A DNA stretch of 13,089 nt from a virus (Duplodnaviria > Heunggongvirae > Uroviricota > Caudoviricetes): positions 1-13,089 of the IMG/VR virus record IMGVR_UViG_2531839006_000011. One strand, given 5' to 3'. Position 1 is the first letter of the stretch. Each line of letters starts with the position of its first letter. Below the pieces are notes generated by a model that ran no database searches, was not told where the DNA came from, and saw nothing but the letters and a program-made list of their open reading frames with translations. A program made the position numbers and the translations under genes. Shown here in pieces: positions 7,883-13,089 of the stretch.

Positions 7883-8127
7883 AGATGAAAGAGCTGGTTC
7901 CCGGTCTGCTGAGCTGTCCCGGGGTACCGCCAGCCTGCCAGCGGAAGGCGGTGGACCTCGTTAACCGGTTTCGTCGCGGGGAGAGGAATTACCATGAACT
8001 GAAGGAAAAGGGATTCGGGTATATCAAGATTAATGTTGGTCCGGACTGGCGGTTACTGAGCAGGAACCGGGGACAAACCTGGGCGCTGTTGAGTCACGAG
8101 CGATACAACAATATGAGACTGAGGTAG
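7879..8127 (+). CDS. Hypothetical small protein (82 aa) with RelE/ParE-like C-terminal signature
   Basis: C-terminus WRLLSRNRGQTWALLSHERYNNM fits the RelE/ParE pattern of two beta strands ending in a His/Arg-x-Arg-x-Tyr region. The family call is by-eye inference only. Confidence 0.55.
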   Translation: MKMKELVPGLLSCPGVPPACQRKAVDLVNRFRRGERNYHELKEKGFGYIKINVGPDWRLLSRNRGQTWALLSHERYNNMRLR

Positions 8128-8133
8128 AGCAAA

Positions 8134-8310
8134 ATGACTGATTTTGGTTCAACTAAATATAACGCCAGTTTTGAAGAATGGCATGAAGTGTTAATGGACT
8201 ATGCCGGGTTACGTGGTGGAAGTGCCGCCGATGCCGAAGCATGGCGCGATGACTATGAAGCTGGAAAAACGCCTGTCGAAGCATATTGCGATGAGTGGGG
8301 TGATGAATGA
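8134..8310 (+). CDS. Small highly acidic hypothetical protein (58 aa)
   Basis: ATG 8134 with GAGG about 9 nt upstream; 15 of 58 residues are D/E against 5 K/R/H; its TGA (8308-8310) overlaps the next ATG (8307-8309). Confidence 0.5.
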   Translation: MTDFGSTKYNASFEEWHEVLMDYAGLRGGSAADAEAWRDDYEAGKTPVEAYCDEWGDE

Positions 8311-8519
8311 GCAAAATTGACTATCAGGAGCTGCGTGAGGCGGCAGAAAAGGCAATGCATGACGACTGGGGATTTGACACGGACCTTTTCTATGAGCTGG
8401 TAGAACCATCGATTGTGCTGGCTCTGCTGGATGAATGCGAGACGCTGGCAACTGAGAATGCGAAGCTGAAGACAGCACACCCTCAACTGTTCGGGAAAGC
8501 TGAAGGAGCGACAAAATGA
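8307..8519 (+). CDS. Ea22-like small protein (70 aa)
   Basis: MSKIDYQELREAAEKA...SIVLALLDECETLATENAKLK resembles the LREAAEKA / LALLDE motifs of lambdoid-prophage Ea22-like proteins (recollection). ATGA overlap with the next gene at 8516-8519. Confidence 0.6.
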   Translation: MSKIDYQELREAAEKAMHDDWGFDTDLFYELVEPSIVLALLDECETLATENAKLKTAHPQLFGKAEGATK

Positions 8520-8737
8520 GCAAGCCAACCGACGAAGAAATAGTTCGGGTGTTGGAAGAACACGGGCGCTGTATGACTTACGTCGTGACCAACTGGCTTA
8601 GGGATAAATATCGCACACTCAAAACGGCATACGTTTTGCGTCGTCTAAAGAAACTGGAGTTCGACGGGAAAGTAAAGCGCGTTAACAGTTCTTATATAAG
8701 ACAAATTTGCTGGGAGGCAACCAGTGAGCGAGATTGA
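8516..8737 (+). CDS. Small basic protein, possible winged-helix DNA-binding protein (73 aa)
   Basis: C-terminal YVLRRLKKLEFDGKVKRV resembles a wHTH recognition helix plus wing. ATG at 8516 overlaps the upstream stop. Confidence 0.5.
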   Translation: MSKPTDEEIVRVLEEHGRCMTYVVTNWLRDKYRTLKTAYVLRRLKKLEFDGKVKRVNSSYIRQICWEATSERD

Positions 8738-9323
8738 TTATCAGGCGCTACGGGAACGTTATTCACCTAAGCCAGTACCTGAATGCTCTGTTTGTGGCGA
8801 GGAAATGTCAATACAGCGCATATCTGGAGCACATGTTGTTTATGCCTGTTCCGGTGAGGGTGATGACGGATATTTTAAGATAGGGCGTACTTTTGCAGAC
8901 GAACATTATGAAGAATCACGCGTAACAGTAGTTGATGATAGTGATCCCGATGTGATTGCACTACTGGACGAACTGGAGGCAGCAAAATCAAAACTCAACG
9001 AGCAGCGTGAATATTACGAGGGAGTAATCGCGGATGGGAGTAAGCGTATTGCAGAACTGGAAGCACGGGAAATAAAACCAGCCAAAGGCGAAGTTCTTGT
9101 CGTTGTATCTGGTTTTACTGGTTGCGGAAAAAGCGCCATTGCCGGGGAAATAGAAATCGCGATGAAGGCTATTGGTGTGCCGGTTCTATGGACTAATGGC
9201 GATGCGGAAAAGCGCATGACAGGAGCTGACTGGCTGACAGCGATTGAGATGTACAAACCAAATGTGCGCATCGTGGAAGTTAATGTGCCACGCGTCGCTG
9301 GCATTCGCACCAAAGGAGAGTGA
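8724..9323 (+). CDS. Ea22-like N-terminus / Cys-cluster / coiled-coil / C-terminal P-loop protein (199 aa, GTG start)
   Basis: GTG at 8724 with GGGAGG 6 nt upstream. N-terminus MSEIDYQALRE parallels the 8307 ORF; Cys cluster CSVCGEEM...YACSGEGDDGY; VIALLDELEAAKSKL; Walker A-like SGFTGCGKSA. Confidence 0.55.
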   Translation: MSEIDYQALRERYSPKPVPECSVCGEEMSIQRISGAHVVYACSGEGDDGYFKIGRTFADEHYEESRVTVVDDSDPDVIALLDELEAAKSKLNEQREYYEGVIADGSKRIAELEAREIKPAKGEVLVVVSGFTGCGKSAIAGEIEIAMKAIGVPVLWTNGDAEKRMTGADWLTAIEMYKPNVRIVEVNVPRVAGIRTKGE

Positions 9324-9324
9324 T

Positions 9325-9840
9325 ATGGCGTTAACACACCGCGAACTCTGTCAGATTGCGTACAAGTTCCTTAAGCGCAACGGGTTCAAGGTTTGTTTTC
9401 ATGACCGCTTTATAGCTGTAACCAGTACCGGAGAACAGCCAGATGCTATGGGATTCAGAAATTCAGCATCATGCCTGATAGAGGCGAAATGTTCTCGTGC
9501 TGACTTGTTGGCAGATAGAAAAAAGCGTTTTCGTAAAAATCCATCTCTTGGAATGGGCGACTGGCGATTCTTTATTAGTGAGCCGGGAATTATTTCAATT
9601 GAGGATTTACCACCTGGCTGGGGATTACTTCACGTTGTTAACGGAAGAGTACGGAAAGTACATGGGTGGCCCAGGGGTAATTGCTGTTGGGGTAATCCTG
9701 ACGATAAGCCATTTACTGGAAATAAGCAGGTTGAATGCGATTACATGTTATCTGCATTAAGGCGCATGGAGTTGAGAGGGCACCTTAATGAAATATATGA
9801 CGGTGTAATTGTTAATAAGAAAGAAGGAAACGCAGCATGA
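9325..9840 (+). CDS. PD-(D/E)xK nuclease-like protein, MmcB-like (171 aa)
   Basis: AAAGGAG SD before ATG 9325. Motifs GEQPDAMGF ... LIEAKCSRADLLADRKKRF fit a D...E-x-K nuclease core as in the MmcB/DUF1052 family (recollection). Confidence 0.6.
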   Translation: MALTHRELCQIAYKFLKRNGFKVCFHDRFIAVTSTGEQPDAMGFRNSASCLIEAKCSRADLLADRKKRFRKNPSLGMGDWRFFISEPGIISIEDLPPGWGLLHVVNGRVRKVHGWPRGNCCWGNPDDKPFTGNKQVECDYMLSALRRMELRGHLNEIYDGVIVNKKEGNAA

Positions 9841-9977
9841 TCACTATTACCAAAGAGCGACTGCTGACAATCCAGCAGTGGCGCGAAACATACGGACCTG
9901 GTAGCAACGTTGTATTGCCAGCAGAAGAAGCGGAAGAACTGGCACGAATTGCACTGGCATTGCTGGAAGCAGAACCG
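9837..9977 (+). repeat. About 141-bp direct repeat, copy 1 (5' module of a paralogous gene pair)
   Basis: Hand alignment to 10668-10808 gives 9 mismatches in 141 bp; similarity ends abruptly after the module. Confidence 0.8.
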
Positions 9978-10235
9978 CTGGTGCCCGTCATGTATAAAGG
10001 AATGAAACTGTTAACAAAAGAGGGGCTTGAGCTTATTCGTGACGGTATTGCTGAGGCTACAGGACTGGAAGCAATGTGTATGGCTGAGGCTTTGCTGTCT
10101 GGGGCGTCAGTGCCGTCAGTGCCAGAAGAAATGTATTGGCAGGATGCGCCTGTTGGAGGCAGTAGCAAAGCAGCTGCATACGCGACAGGCTGGAATGCCT
10201 GTCGCGCCGCAATGCTTCAGGGAAAAGGAAAGTGA
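9837..10235 (+). CDS. Hypothetical protein, paralog A of a shared N-terminal module (132 aa)
   Basis: ATGA overlap with the upstream gene; the first 47 aa are near-identical to the ORF at 10668 and the C-terminus is unrelated. Confidence 0.6.
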   Translation: MITITKERLLTIQQWRETYGPGSNVVLPAEEAEELARIALALLEAEPLVPVMYKGMKLLTKEGLELIRDGIAEATGLEAMCMAEALLSGASVPSVPEEMYWQDAPVGGSSKAAAYATGWNACRAAMLQGKGK

Positions 10236-10236
10236 T

Positions 10237-10458
10237 ATGGCTAACTCGTTACTTGAAACCTGCAACAACTGGCAGATTCAGAGGGCGGAGATTTTATCTC
10301 GCAATCCAGATATGGCAATGACAATTGATAATCTGGACACGCTAATTGAACGGACCGTGCGTTCTGCAATTGATATAGCACATCGAGTGGATTGGGATTT
10401 CAGAGAAGCGGAGCGGCTTGCTAAAGAGCAGGAGAAAGCAGCGGGTAAAGGAGACTGA
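10237..10458 (+). CDS. Hypothetical small protein (73 aa)
   Basis: ATG 10237 follows the upstream TGA (10233-10235) with AAGGA upstream; its stop abuts the next ATG at 10460. The track's longer 10027 start overlaps the upstream gene and was not used. Confidence 0.5.
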   Translation: MANSLLETCNNWQIQRAEILSRNPDMAMTIDNLDTLIERTVRSAIDIAHRVDWDFREAERLAKEQEKAAGKGD

Positions 10459-10459
10459 T

Positions 10460-10657
10460 ATGGATAAAAACACCACTGCTTACTGGAATCTGTCACTTGA
10501 TACCGAATGCCCAAAATGCGGTCACAATTTCGATCTGCTTTGTGATCCAGATTTCTGGGAATTTTCTGGAGCAAAACAGGCATGTGAAGAAATAAAAGGT
10601 TACGAAACATGCTGTCCAGAATGTAACCATGAATTTAAAACAGATTTTGTGTATTGA
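10460..10657 (+). CDS. Small zinc-ribbon-like protein (65 aa)
   Basis: Two Cys pairs, CPKCGHNF and CCPECNHEF, spaced as in a zinc ribbon; ATG at 10460. Confidence 0.55.
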   Translation: MDKNTTAYWNLSLDTECPKCGHNFDLLCDPDFWEFSGAKQACEEIKGYETCCPECNHEFKTDFVY

Positions 10658-10667
10658 GGCATAACAA

Positions 10668-10808
10668 ATGACCACTATAACCAAAGAGCGACTGCTGACA
10701 ATCAAGCAGTGGCGCGAAACATACGGACCGGGTAGCAACGTTGTACTGCCAGCAGAAGAAGCGGAAGAACTGGCACGGATTGTACTGGCATCGCTGGAAG
10801 CGGAACCG
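10668..10808 (+). repeat. About 141-bp direct repeat, copy 2
   Basis: See copy 1 at 9837-9977. Confidence 0.8.
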
Positions 10809-11081
10809 GTGGCGTGGATGTGTGATGACGAAGATGGTCGTGAATATAACGGTCATAACGAGTTTTCTTATGGAAGACGCGGGATTCCCCTTTACGCCGT
10901 CCCGCCAGCGCCGAATGGATTGGTTAAAGCCGTAGCTTTCTATGAGCAGGTTAAACGTGAAAATCCGCCAGTTGAAACGGGAGCATGGAAAGACGCCGTT
11001 GACTGGGTGCTTAAACAAGCTTGTCAGGCTGTAAACACTGGCATCAATGAAAGAAGAACAATTGAAGAAAATGATGATTGA
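10668..11081 (+). CDS. Hypothetical protein, paralog B of the shared N-terminal module (137 aa)
   Basis: ATG 10668 with GAGG about 8 nt upstream; N-terminus MTTITKERLLTIKQWRETYGPGSNVVLPAEEAEELARIVLASLEAEP differs at 4 of 47 positions from the 9837 ORF. Confidence 0.6.
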   Translation: MTTITKERLLTIKQWRETYGPGSNVVLPAEEAEELARIVLASLEAEPVAWMCDDEDGREYNGHNEFSYGRRGIPLYAVPPAPNGLVKAVAFYEQVKRENPPVETGAWKDAVDWVLKQACQAVNTGINERRTIEENDD

Positions 11082-11129
11082 GCCGGAAGCAGCAAAAAAG
11101 CGCATTGCAGAACTGGAGGAGCGCCGGTC

Positions 11130-11345
11130 ATGAGAAAAATCAGTGGAATGTTGAACCTGGAGAAGGCCAGGATGCAGTTGCGTGTTTTGTTATCAGGACC
11201 GGTTCCTGCGATCACTCCGATGTCGCATGCCGTGGCAATTAAAGTTGTGCCTGATGCTCCGGATGCGAGTGAGCGGAGGGTGGCTGAACTGGAACAGGCC
11301 TGCGCTGCCGCGGGCATTCGTATCAAAGGGGAACAAGTGAAATGA
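11130..11345 (+). CDS. Hypothetical small protein (71 aa)
   Basis: GGAGGA about 9 nt upstream of ATG 11130; its stop overlaps the next ATG (ATGA at 11342-11345). Confidence 0.45.
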   Translation: MRKISGMLNLEKARMQLRVLLSGPVPAITPMSHAVAIKVVPDAPDASERRVAELEQACAAAGIRIKGEQVK

Positions 11346-11563
11346 AACTGAAGATGCAGGCAATGGACGGCCCGGTGATTATAGAGAGTAGTGATGTGAC
11401 ACAGTTTTACCCTGACCATGAAAGTGGCGGGGAACTCACCGCTGTTGAGTACCTTGCTGACGGGGGAAGAATCACCGCGAGGGTGAGGCACTCTTTTTAT
11501 CAGGTTGCTGCGGCACTTGCCGGGGCATGGCGTGCGGATGATGCATCAAAAAGCGGTGGGTGA
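11342..11563 (+). CDS. Hypothetical small protein (73 aa)
   Basis: ATGA-coupled to the upstream ORF; last gene of the small-ORF train. Confidence 0.45.
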   Translation: MKLKMQAMDGPVIIESSDVTQFYPDHESGGELTAVEYLADGGRITARVRHSFYQVAAALAGAWRADDASKSGG

Positions 11564-11823
11564 GGACTGTGCCGGAATGATTGTCTGTTCCGAAGCTGCT
11601 GAACCGCGACATAAATTTTTTATGTTGCGGTGAAGCAGCCGGCAAACGAAGAGCGTCAGCGTATCAACAGTTAAGGAAAATATCTTCTGAAGCCGGACGC
11701 GACAGTCAGTCCGGTGGTGCTCGTGTGGTGAAGTGTTTAGCCTGCATCTTTGACAGGGTTCAGTTATAAGCATTTCGGAAACCGTTCCCCGGCGCAGTCT
11801 GCCGGGATTTAAGGAGTTTATTT
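11564..11823 (+). promoter_or_regulatory. Structured 260-bp intergenic region upstream of the Rep-like gene (inverted repeats, iteron-related 11-mer, strong SD)
   Basis: Inverted repeats CCGCGACATAAA / TTTATGTTGCGG (11604-11630), CCGGAC / GTCCGG (11693-11714) and CCCGGC / GCCGGG (11788-11806); TTCGGAAACCG at 11774-11784 recurs inside the downstream gene (12644-12654); AAGGAG before ATG 11824. The track ORF here (11581-11769) is rich in rare codons. Confidence 0.4.
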
Positions 11824-13089
11824 ATGGCGCTACCTGCAGAAAGCCTTATTGCGCATACGCTCAGAAAAATGAAGGCCAGCATGGCAGAGAAAGCCAGTCG
11901 TGAGGACGGGAGGATACGCAGTGGGCTGTTGTTTACCGGCAATGTTCACGATTCGTATCCCCGCAGGCTGTTGCTGGATACGCGCCTTTCTCCCCTTGAT
12001 AAAACTGCGTGGATGATGATTCGTCTGCATGCCCTGAATAATGAGGGCGCAGTATTTCCGACGTACGATGAACTGCAGTTACAACTGGCATCTCCCGGGT
12101 GCGGGAAGGCGTCCCGTGAAACAGTGAGCCGGGTGCTGACAATGCTGCGGCTTACGGGCTGGCTGAGTCTGTGTAAGCGGGTCAGGGATGAAAAAGGGCG
12201 GGTCCGGGGGAATATTTACGCCCTGCATGATGAGCCACTGACCTGCTGTGATGCAGAAAAGTTTGACCCACGATACCTGGATATGGTTCTGGATACTGTG
12301 AGCAGGAGCCGGAACAAGACAATCCGGCACACAGCCAGTGAAGTGCTCAGTGATATCAAAAATGAGCCCGGTATGCGGCATTACCACAGCCATATCACTC
12401 TGTTTGAATCGCGTATGGGGGCAGCACAGACACCTGGTCAGCTGGCGGCGCGTCAGCGGGTGAACCCGATGGTGAATGAAAACACAGGCAGAGAGAGTGG
12501 TTCGGATTCCGTACATACCCCTGCACCTGTCGTGCAGGTAACCGAACTCAGTGCTCCGTTAACCGAACTCAGTGAAAAACAGGAAATGAGCCCACTCAGT
12601 TCGGATTCCGTACCGCCTGAAAAATCAGTAACTTATCACTCGGTTCGGAAACCGAACAATTACGTACGTAATATCACACACAGTGTGATTAAAAATACGT
12701 ACGTATTGCCTGAGTCGGTGAAATCGCAAATCAGCACAGAAGACACGGACATGCTGACAAAACAACTGCAGGCGTTGCCGGAAGAACTGGCAGGTAGTGT
12801 GCTGAGCAGCCTGTCACAGATGCTCAGCAAAAACACGCTCCAGAATCCGGTTGGCTGGATGCTGGCTGTGATGAAACGTGCGCGTGAGGGAAGTTTTAAT
12901 ACGCCGGATATGTCCGTGCATGAATCCCGGTCGCCAGCCCGTGCACCATATCAGCCTGTGTACAACCGTGATGAACGTGAACGTCGTCGCAGGAAAGTGG
13001 CGTCACCTGAAACGGTGAGCAACATTGTCGCAGAATTCCGTGCCAGCCTGAAACGTGCAAATGCTGCCCGTCTGGCGGCGCGTGTTTGA
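11824..13089 (+). CDS. Winged-helix DNA-binding protein, candidate replication initiator (421 aa, complete; TGA at 13087-13089)
   Basis: N-terminal region LSPLDKTAWMMIRLHA...GKASRETVSRVLTMLRLTGWLS...GRVRGNIYALHDEP looks like a wHTH initiator/regulator domain; a central low-complexity linker is encoded by iteron-like DNA repeats; basic C-terminus. The replication role is inferred. Confidence 0.7.
   Translation: MALPAESLIAHTLRKMKASMAEKASREDGRIRSGLLFTGNVHDSYPRRLLLDTRLSPLDKTAWMMIRLHALNNEGAVFPTYDELQLQLASPGCGKASRETVSRVLTMLRLTGWLSLCKRVRDEKGRVRGNIYALHDEPLTCCDAEKFDPRYLDMVLDTVSRSRNKTIRHTASEVLSDIKNEPGMRHYHSHITLFESRMGAAQTPGQLAARQRVNPMVNENTGRESGSDSVHTPAPVVQVTELSAPLTELSEKQEMSPLSSDSVPPEKSVTYHSVRKPNNYVRNITHSVIKNTYVLPESVKSQISTEDTDMLTKQLQALPEELAGSVLSSLSQMLSKNTLQNPVGWMLAVMKRAREGSFNTPDMSVHESRSPARAPYQPVYNRDERERRRRKVASPETVSNIVAEFRASLKRANAARLAARV
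12496..12706. repeat. Iteron-like repeat cluster inside the Rep-like CDS (candidate origin or operator array)
   Basis: Exact 15-mer GTTCGGATTCCGTAC twice (12500-12514, 12599-12613); exact 13-mer ACCGAACTCAGTG twice (12541-12553, 12562-12574); GGTTCGG-AA-ACCGAAC at 12642-12657; TACGTACGTA twice (12661-12670, 12696-12705) flanking ATCACAC-aca-GTGTGAT (12673-12689). Confidence 0.5.

Follow-up and report, generated by a model that had tools for sequence, protein, structure and literature searches.

A near-identical 5' segment shared by two small genes of a conjugative island: a probable portable cassette of mosaic phage accessory genes

The stretch of DNA analyzed here (the window) comprises 13,089 nucleotides (nt) of the Caudoviricetes record IMGVR_UViG_2531839006_000011 (positions 1 to 13,089) and contains a series of small genes, two of which begin with nearly the same sequence. 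These open reading frames (ORFs), designated A (132 amino acids [aa]; 9837..10235, plus strand) and B (137 aa; 10668..11081, plus strand), share a 5' segment termed the cassette and nothing else. In ORF A, the cassette is followed by a middle part (approximately codons 48 to 90; 9978..10107, plus strand), which is a rare cassette in its own right, and by a common tail, VPEEMYWQDAP...GWNACRAAMLQGKGK (10108..10235, plus strand), which precedes DUF551 in longer relatives; A is a short form lacking DUF551. In ORF B, the cassette is followed by a middle part, VAWMCDDEDGREYNG...IPLYAVPPAPNG (10809..10916, plus strand), an LYAVPPAP linker, and a helical tail, LVKAVAFYEQVKRENPPVETGAWKDAVDWVLKQACQ... 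(10917..11081, plus strand), which matches phrog_26213 and phrog_250 and is also found C-terminally in Ead/Ea22-type proteins. A GAAGGA ribosome-binding site precedes ORF A, whose start codon shares an ATGA with the stop codon of the gene before it. With isoelectric points of 4.7 to 4.8, the two proteins are acidic. The evidence presented below supports the view that A and B are very probably intact members of a mosaic family of lambdoid early-region accessory genes, with the repeat being a portable N-terminal cassette drawn from a shared pool.

A repeat search of the whole window returned positions 9837 to 9981 and 10668 to 10812 as a single direct repeat of 145 nt with 93% identity and a spacing of 831 nt. 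Cassette copy A (9837..9981, plus strand) consists of ORF A codons 1 to 47 plus 4 nt and encodes MITITKERLLTIQQWRETYGPGSNVVLPAEEAEELARIALALLEAEP, and cassette copy B (10668..10812, plus strand) consists of the same codons of ORF B plus 4 nt and encodes MTTITKERLLTIKQWRETYGPGSNVVLPAEEAEELARIVLASLEAEP. A direct count gave 10 mismatches per 145 nt, 9 of them within the first 141 (93.6% identity over 141 nt), with longest identical runs of 31, 25, and 24 nt (cassette nt 80 to 110, 38 to 62, and 13 to 36, respectively). The chance of such a repeat over all placements in the window was approximately 4e-60, and every other repeat was 37 nt or shorter, with a next-best identity of at most 86%. Both copies start precisely at the ATG of their ORF, and similarity ends at codon 47 to 48. 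Identity between the two loci was only 0.17 in the 40 nt 5' of the ATG and 0.25 in the 100 nt 3' of the repeat, and past residue 47 no BLASTP alignment between A and B was obtained, even at E ≤ 100. The recount therefore gave exactly the figures of the original prediction, which had been made from the letters of the window and had described a near-identical 141-bp segment with 9 mismatches at the start of two ORFs 831 bp apart. Its description of an abrupt stop before unrelated C-termini was likewise borne out by the low downstream identity and the absence of any alignment between the tails.

Variation was compared across 72 copies of the cassette. Nucleotide diversity at codon positions 1, 2, and 3 was 0.015, 0.023, and 0.118, respectively. 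By the Nei-Gojobori method, the ratio of nonsynonymous to synonymous divergence (dN/dS) was 0.13 to 0.26 for the cassette (dS of 0.13 to 0.22), 0.06 to 0.075 for the A tail (dS of 0.5 to 0.7), and 0.06 to 0.095 for the B tail (dS of ∼0.77). These figures cover the cassette and the tails; the rare middle of A has homologs at the protein level only. On the basis of codon-position diversity and dN/dS, the plus-strand frame is the selected frame, and the comparisons indicate that A and B are intact, with the parts outside the cassette maintained in both by purifying selection. Two antisense ORFs of 118 aa (9812..10168, minus strand) and 81 aa (10493..10738, minus strand) are present in the ORF list, as the original prediction had noted when advising against their annotation. 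Because variation among the 72 copies is concentrated at plus-frame third positions, a codon-position pattern that favors the plus frame, both are considered spurious by-products.

The cassette was found to be widespread. In an exhaustive search with a 50-residue cassette query, the representatives of 583 clusters (formed at 50% identity) were matched, and for 448 the E value was 1e-10 or lower; an earlier protein search with the cassette (50 aa) had returned short or partial proteins only. Among the best 150 representatives, the match lay at residues 1 to 50 in nearly all, with 82 to 98% identity, in proteins of 65 to 418 aa. The 145-nt DNA was present in 200 phage records (192 at ≥90% identity), comprising Stx1 and Stx2 phages together with Salmonella, Shigella, and Klebsiella phages, in which it was annotated as EaA, Ea22, DUF551, and even "valyl-tRNA synthetase." At least 354 stretches in IMG/VR encode it. 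A scan of one genome per species detected at least 7 relatives, most of them from Enterobacterales; two contigs binned as 'Segatella copri' were also recovered. The latter (L091 and L092, short contigs of a metagenome-assembled genome from a Bacteroidota bin) encode relatives of the cassette with 55 to 59% identity and are most likely mis-binned enterobacterial phage DNA.

Among 71 DNA copies, mean pairwise identity was 0.34 to 0.50 upstream, 0.90 to 1.0 from the ATG to nt 132, 0.75 at nt 133 to 144, and ∼0.33 past nt 145, the step at the ATG itself being to 0.93 to 1.0. With edges this sharp, the cassette is a discrete unit. It alone accounts for the matches of both proteins to phrog_3323 and phrog_60. 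Attachment of the same N-terminal module to other C-terminal segments, which the original prediction had suggested surveying, was readily found: clustering of the sequence that follows the cassette in 187 proteins gave at least 33 distinct junction-proximal segments, a lower bound that includes some fragments and frameshifted calls. Domains detected among 142 representatives were DUF551 (PF04448) in 40, dATP/dGTP pyrophosphohydrolase (PF04447) in 4, and DUF4752 and Ead_Ea22 in 1 each, with the remainder having no Pfam domain.

The same patchwork extended along the full length of both proteins. When the collected proteins (524 in all) sharing each 12-residue window were counted, the counts along A and B formed step functions. 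Residues 1 to 47 of A were common to 440 to 506 proteins, residues ∼48 to 90 to 17 to 19, and residues ∼91 to 128 to 113 to 169. For B, the cassette was common to 445 to 504 proteins, the first part of the middle to 32 to 36, the second part to 2 to 8, and the tail (residues 85 to 120) to ∼100. Among complete Escherichia coli genomes, the middle of A was restricted to the 26 carrying this island; the tail of A occurred in ∼500 genomes at 85 to 88% identity. Individual proteins displayed these parts in other combinations. The body of A follows another N-module in P0357, as does the body of B in P0236, while the cassette is joined to another middle and the tail of A in P0369, and to the B middle, an A-type tail differing from that of A, and DUF551 in P0293. 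In P0241, the cassette follows an Ead/Ea22 N-terminus and precedes another middle with a B-type tail; in P0447, it lies between a zinc-ribbon extension and an A-type tail. Six or more dissimilar N-modules were observed as alternatives, all with the terminal ...IALASLEAEP linker, and ...LY(A/T)APPAP... and ...CRAAML... were further recurrent junction motifs. The cassette therefore behaves as expected for part of a mosaic gene, being a sharp-edged segment that lies beside unrelated sequence in different genomes.

Full-length relatives were found for both proteins. Over 100% of its length, A aligned with the first 130 residues of DUF551-type proteins of 207 to 211 aa at 86 to 92% identity (P0353, 211 aa; P0159, 207 aa, with the NCBI name DUF551 protein), and with many PF04448-bearing proteins of 204 to 226 aa at 61 to 64% identity. 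Short A-type forms of 126 to 137 aa ending in ...CRAAMLQGKG recur in other genomes and phages, and A matched phrog_5117 at 7e-12 (protein residues 1 to 130 against profile positions 1 to 124 of 125). B matched phrog_660 at 3e-43 over residues 1 to 129 and belongs to a family of 124- to 148-aa proteins in E. coli and Salmonella, one cluster of which is found on 506 contigs. Neither PF13935 nor PF04448 was matched by ORF A or B (Pfam, E ≤ 0.1).

The window was 100% identical to the chromosomes of approximately 25 complete E. coli genomes, many of them poultry derived. In the identical region of NZ_CP032265, the RefSeq gene order is an opposite-strand P4-type integrase, a tRNA-like remnant, ParA, an SPI-7-type island DnaB, and ParB, followed by DUF2786, DUF2857, a ParE-like gene, and then the run of small genes, which holds three RefSeq "ead/Ea22-like" entries (window 8307 to 11563). 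Beyond this run lie the genes for an STY4528-family replication protein, topoisomerase III, SSB, and PilL and the conjugation genes. With the RefSeq names taken as annotated, the genes from parA to pilL/TIGR03759-type transfer form a backbone of the SPI-7/PAPI-1/ICEHin1056 type. Judged from this gene order, the repeat genes are phage-type cargo in the replication/partition end of an SPI-7/ICEHin1056-type integrative conjugative element.

Evidence of recombination within the cassette came from sister islands. In two of these, L083 (strain Br_112_kylling) and L084 (represented by four genomes), a single 137-aa gene follows the upstream gene of A and runs from the cassette into the body of B; its cassette begins 462 nt before the next gene, as copy B does in the window. 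At the sites diagnostic for A and B, L083 reads AAA|BBBBBBB, which places the crossover between cassette nt 37 and 63, and its flanks (120 nt upstream and 300 nt downstream) both match the window at 100% identity. What separates L083 from the window is therefore precisely an 831-bp unit consisting of the body of A, two genes designated g1 and g2, and one cassette equivalent. Of these genes, g1 (73 aa; 10237..10458, plus strand) is a RefSeq coding sequence matching phrog_10585 over its full length (E of 1e-42), and g2 (65 aa; 10460..10657, plus strand) matches phrog_4173 (E of 9e-28) and is zinc-ribbon-like, with a CxxC...CxxC pattern, although its zinc-ribbon matches in the Pfam scan were weak and below the cut-offs. 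Since the sister islands carry a single hybrid gene with a chimeric cassette, the aligned islands show homologous recombination inside the cassette as the route by which the 831-bp unit is added or removed. In L086, a more distant island lineage, the single cassette gene (157 aa) combines a different middle with a B-type tail, and in L085 the cassette is reduced to its first 15 nt. The one-copy distribution among sister islands suggests that this island family originally had a single copy; L083 may just as well have lost one secondarily, and in both cases the crossover falls within the cassette.

Related segments were also present in phage-plasmids. P1-like phage-plasmids (L087) match window positions 9042 to 9976 and 10175 to 10687 at 97% identity but have another middle separating these two segments, and phage P7 (AF503408.1) gave a 97.6% match. 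Lambdoid phages, phage-plasmids, and this island thus share one exchange pool. More generally, P1/P7-like phage-plasmids of ∼95 to 100 kb (L087 and L088) share segments of window 9042 to 10807 at 97 to 99%, as do Stx phages. The longest runs of identity between copies A and B (31, 25, and 24 nt) are close to the quoted minimum of ∼30 nt for Red-beta recombination, and phage recombinases tolerate such divergence (PMC3945230).

Taken as a whole, these observations are best explained if A and B belong to a family of small acidic early-region accessory proteins of lambdoid prophages, annotated as Eaa, EaA, or 'DUF551 domain-containing', and we hold this explanation to be very likely correct. The cassette is near-invariant across an enterobacterial mobile-element pool while being fused in frame to many unrelated segments, and, as the sister islands show, its DNA acts as a patch of homology for homologous recombination. 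The same recombination may both build the combinatorial architectures and keep the cassette homogenized, probably assisted by divergence-tolerant phage recombinases of the Rad52 type. The likeliest role of the encoded segment would be that of a common oligomerization or partner-binding handle for the variable domains. Because one widespread cassette recombines in frame with many downstream segments, the phenomenon is ordinary phage gene mosaicism: the early accessory genes of lambdoid phages are well known to be mosaic in frame, and here the same is seen in a conjugative island. What is new lies in the detail: a cassette without a Pfam entry, the island context, and a one-copy/two-copy polymorphism with its crossover in a 25-nt interval.

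Several observations weigh against this explanation. In RefSeq, only the 135-nt segments 9837 to 9971 and 10668 to 10802 are annotated, as partial pseudogenes "missing C-terminus." The dS of the cassette lies below that of the tails (0.13 to 0.22 versus 0.5 to 0.8, with small site counts), although this fits homogenization by frequent exchange and only less probably reflects an additional constraint on the nucleotides. The 831-bp event could be a deletion from two copies or an insertion into one, the diagnostic sites fitting either, and the fragments and frameshifted calls among the partner segments soften that count. Scans with Pfam, NCBIfam, and PADLOC covered A, B, and eight neighbors and gave no match for A or B, with no match to PADLOC-DB for any of the ten cluster proteins at E ≤ 0.01. 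No relative emerged when the PDB was searched by sequence and by profile, and fold searches returned generic helical bundles only. Finally, the AlphaFold2 model of A was poor outside the cassette, with a mean predicted local distance difference test score (pLDDT) of 49.

Structure prediction for both proteins had been proposed as a check by the original prediction. Helices were placed at residues 6 to 19 and 29 to 43/45 in both models, with a cassette pLDDT of 65 to 81, so that the cassette is predicted to be a two-helix hairpin ending in the ...RIALASLEAEP linker. The model of B was usable (mean pLDDT of 75; predicted template modeling score of 0.56); past the cassette, it has a small sheet of three strands and two long helices. 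Purifying selection on the encoded protein segment implies that the cassette itself is functional. It is conceivable, although we regard this as tentative, that the cassette serves as a handle for one conserved partner of the host or the element, or for oligomerization, and, as part of the same tentative proposal, that the downstream segments are interchangeable effector or target-binding domains. This functional proposal is compatible with the mosaic-family explanation. It draws on how strongly purifying selection acts on the helical hairpin of 47 residues, near-invariant across hundreds of architectures, on the almost exclusively N-terminal position of the hairpin, and on the analogy with Ea22, in which a shared N-terminal and coiled-coil part serves tetramerization and the C-terminal domains are variable (PMC10834534). 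It is countered by the fold and PDB searches, which found no sequence or structure similarity to a known interaction domain, and by the dissimilar N-modules that stand before the same bodies; since these alternatives replace the cassette, it is not obligatory for the bodies. The original prediction had conceded that a functional interpretation would fail if the module were simply a widespread phage domain of no specific role. This applies in part, because the cassette is indeed a widespread phage domain (PHROGs 60, 660, 3323, and 5117, all without an assigned function).

By the same analogy, and jointly with the handle, A/B-type proteins might act as early-expressed, host-modulating accessory factors, a suggestion that is equally tentative. 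A more far-reaching version appears doubtful: that the cassette is a docking or oligomerization handle for small, rapidly reshuffled host-directed or counter-defense domains, forming a toolkit common to lambdoid phages, P1-like phage-plasmids, and conjugative islands as three classes of invading DNA, with the cassette DNA doubling as a recombination linker that renders the reshuffling efficient. If the handle is real, the family would represent a natural library of swappable domains for host-takeover or anti-defense screening.

A less probable explanation follows the RefSeq annotation, in which the Prokaryotic Genome Annotation Pipeline labels 9837 to 9971 and 10668 to 10802 as 'incomplete; missing C-terminus'. 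A and B would then be remnants of decayed, longer DUF551-type genes in which only the first 45 codons are meaningful, and A does align with the N-terminal 130 aa of DUF551 proteins of 207 to 225 aa while lacking DUF551 itself. However, the ORFs have 132 and 137 codons, ribosome-binding sites, and tight coupling to their neighbors; B fits phrog_660 over residues 1 to 129 and a 124- to 148-aa family on hundreds of contigs and is intact in the sister islands; and A has recurring counterparts of 126 to 137 aa and matches phrog_5117 end to end. Together with a tail dN/dS of 0.06 to 0.095, these findings make decay improbable. The truncated-pseudogene call arises from a best reference protein that has nothing but the cassette in common with these genes, and it looks like an artifact of mosaicism. 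The original prediction had allowed that a pseudogene copy would undermine the functional interpretation; intact ORFs, full-length homologs, and a tail dN/dS of 0.06 to 0.1 all oppose this.

The two copies could alternatively be the product of a local event, the cassette having recently been duplicated or gene-converted between neighboring genes of the island. The copies are on the same strand, 831 bp apart and 93% identical, and the single-copy sister islands show that both can interact by recombination. However, copies on unrelated prophage contigs were 97.2% identical to A and 96.5% identical to B, and by identity the other window copy ranked only 49th and 42nd of 71 in a pool with a mean pairwise identity of 94.8%. 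Since each copy is nearer to copies from unrelated prophages (96.5 to 97.2%) than to its neighbor (93.6%), local duplication is unlikely. The cassette is, in addition, present in hundreds of other proteins, and copy A comes along with its usual phage upstream gene. A and B are, as far as these rankings can tell, two independent draws from a large shared pool, and their resemblance would reflect that common source rather than gene-to-gene copying. A local origin is accordingly given very little weight. The recent module exchange read from the repeat by the original prediction was upheld as to exchange, by the many downstream segments and the crossover in the sister islands, and not supported as to a recent exchange between A and B, given the ranks of 49th and 42nd.

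It is scarcely credible that the 145 nt are conserved as a recombinase site, promoter, or structured RNA with the reading frame incidental, because, although synonymous divergence is lower in the cassette than in the tails and both copies hold an antisense sigma-70-like hexamer pair, third-position variation is eight-fold that of position 1 and five-fold that of position 2, RNA folding z-scores were −0.5 to −0.9 on both strands, Rfam was unmatched, promoter-like sites numbered 6 versus 4.5 ± 2.0 in shuffles, and dissimilar N-modules take the same position while keeping only the ...IALASLEAEP linker. An RNA element in particular was dropped from consideration on the absence of Rfam matches and the unremarkable folding. 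The hexamers, at 9843 to 9870 and 10674 to 10701 on the minus strand, are TTGTCA, a 16-nt spacer, and AATAGT or TATAGT (9 and 10 of 12 matches). The scan for promoters and terminators gave counts no higher than in shuffles, and since promoter-like sites are no commoner than in shuffled sequence, the hexamer pair is probably due to chance.

The genes around A and B are co-directional and tightly packed. ATGA start/stop overlaps occur at 8516, 9837, and 11342, the start at 8724 overlaps the preceding gene by 14 nt, and gaps of 1 nt precede 9325, 10237, and 10460. The run opens with a gene named ParE family toxin-like in RefSeq (7879-8127), after which come a 58-aa ORF (8134-8310) and two Ead/Ea22-like genes (8307-8519 and 8724-9323, plus strand) that match PF13935 with E values of 5e-10 and 4e-26 (scores of 40.7 and 92.9 bits, with a gathering cut-off of 27). 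A small gene (8516-8737, plus strand) lies between them. The Ead/Ea22-like pair shares another N-terminal segment, MSKIDYQELRE / MSEIDYQALRE (repeat family D3), an N-terminal-only sharing akin to that of A and B with a different module. The gene directly upstream of A (9325..9840, plus strand; 171 aa from ATG 9325) matches phrog_9263 over residues 3 to 171 (E of 8e-123). This gene is the usual left neighbor of cassette genes in Stx phages and P1-like phage-plasmids, and the upstream context of copy A is common to 18/71 cassette copies. Shigella phage 75/02 Stx has the order Ead/Ea22-like gene, phrog_9263 gene, cassette gene in its early accessory region as well, and its cassette gene is labeled "EaA protein." RefSeq treats the 9325-9840 gene as 'frameshifted' and annotates only 9325-9503, and it splits 8724-9323 into two partial pseudogenes; in the window these are intact ORFs of 171 codons and of 199 aa (Ead_Ea22), respectively. 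Several pseudogene flags in the cluster thus look like artifacts of mosaicism. Between the DUF2857/ParE-like genes and the STY4528 gene, the cargo varies among the islands compared (L083 to L086 and window 8300-11600). They differ, among other things, in their Ead/Ea22 variants, in an XF1762-family gene and a DUF7446 gene, and in having one or two cassette genes. The island family appears to have a variable hotspot here.

At the other end of the window, RefSeq places a 78-nt 'tRNA-Ser' at 1460-1537, a position at which ARAGORN and Rfam found no complete tRNA. The 50 nt at 1461-1510 on the minus strand, GGGGATTGAAAATCCCCGTGTCCTTGGTTCGATTCCGAGTCCGGGCACCA, are presumably the 3' part of E. coli tRNA-Phe, and they are followed by a hairpin and a T-run. 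The segment is probably an attachment-site (att) direct-repeat remnant between the conjugative island, on the ParA side, and a second island, to which the P4-type integrase at 1-1263 would belong. Such a remnant would mean a tandem island array at the phe-tRNA site.

The practical consequences concern annotation, mosaic formation, and a shared gene pool. Both genes and many of their relatives are called truncated in RefSeq although the evidence indicates intact mosaic genes, and the antisense ORFs should be ignored. The locus is also a clean, small example of sub-genic mosaic formation, in which a 145-nt in-frame patch of homology mediates the gain or loss of an 831-bp unit of three gene pieces. 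Through this one patch, lambdoid phages and P1-like phage-plasmids are linked in their gene pools with each other and with a conjugative island of the SPI-7 type. The current understanding of phage mosaicism is unchanged by it.

Compared with the replication/partition module of the SPI-7/ICEHin1056 family (comparison source, PMC3739013), the island has the same backbone of parA, dnaB, parB, the STY4528-family gene, topoisomerase III, and ssb, but here a phage-type ea cluster is inserted between the DUF2857/ParE-like genes and the STY4528 gene. Among phage proteins, a close parallel is Ea22 (PF13935). In the mosaic Ea22 proteins of lambda and Stx phages, a shared N-terminal part is combined with a coiled coil supporting tetramerization and with variable acidic C-terminal domains, including DUF551, itself a portable domain (PMC10834534). 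Ea22 affects the lysis-lysogeny decision via an as-yet unnamed host partner (PMC10834534; PMC8614690). A and B resemble it as acidic products of lambdoid early-region accessory genes with a shared N-terminus and swappable C-terminal domains including DUF551, and Ea22-family genes lie directly upstream in the window (8307-8519 and 8724-9323). They differ in that the sequence of the cassette is another one and that it is a short helical hairpin in place of an N-terminal segment with a long coiled coil; fusion of the cassette to Ea22 is rare (P0241). The studied DUF551 (PF04448) protein is YfdS of E. coli CPS-53 (PMC4776307). Many prophage proteins annotated as Eaa or DUF551 are headed by the same cassette as A and B, but A and B lack the DUF551 domain. 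The PHROGs matched by A and B (660, 60, 3323, and 5117) are clustering families without a function, and their overlapping matches reflect mosaicism.

Mosaics of temperate phages arise mainly by divergence-tolerant homologous recombination, with within-gene fragments of ∼100 bp often exchanged (PMC3945230). The present locus is similar in its short, 90 to 97% identical segments with sharp edges, its crossovers within patches of a few tens of nt, and its sub-genic exchange. No recent mosaics between the lambda-like and P1-P2-Mu groups were found in that study, whereas the pool described here adds a conjugative island and P1/P7-like phage-plasmids. This small-gene region appears to be exchanged across the lambda-like and P1-P2-Mu groups and with a conjugative island.

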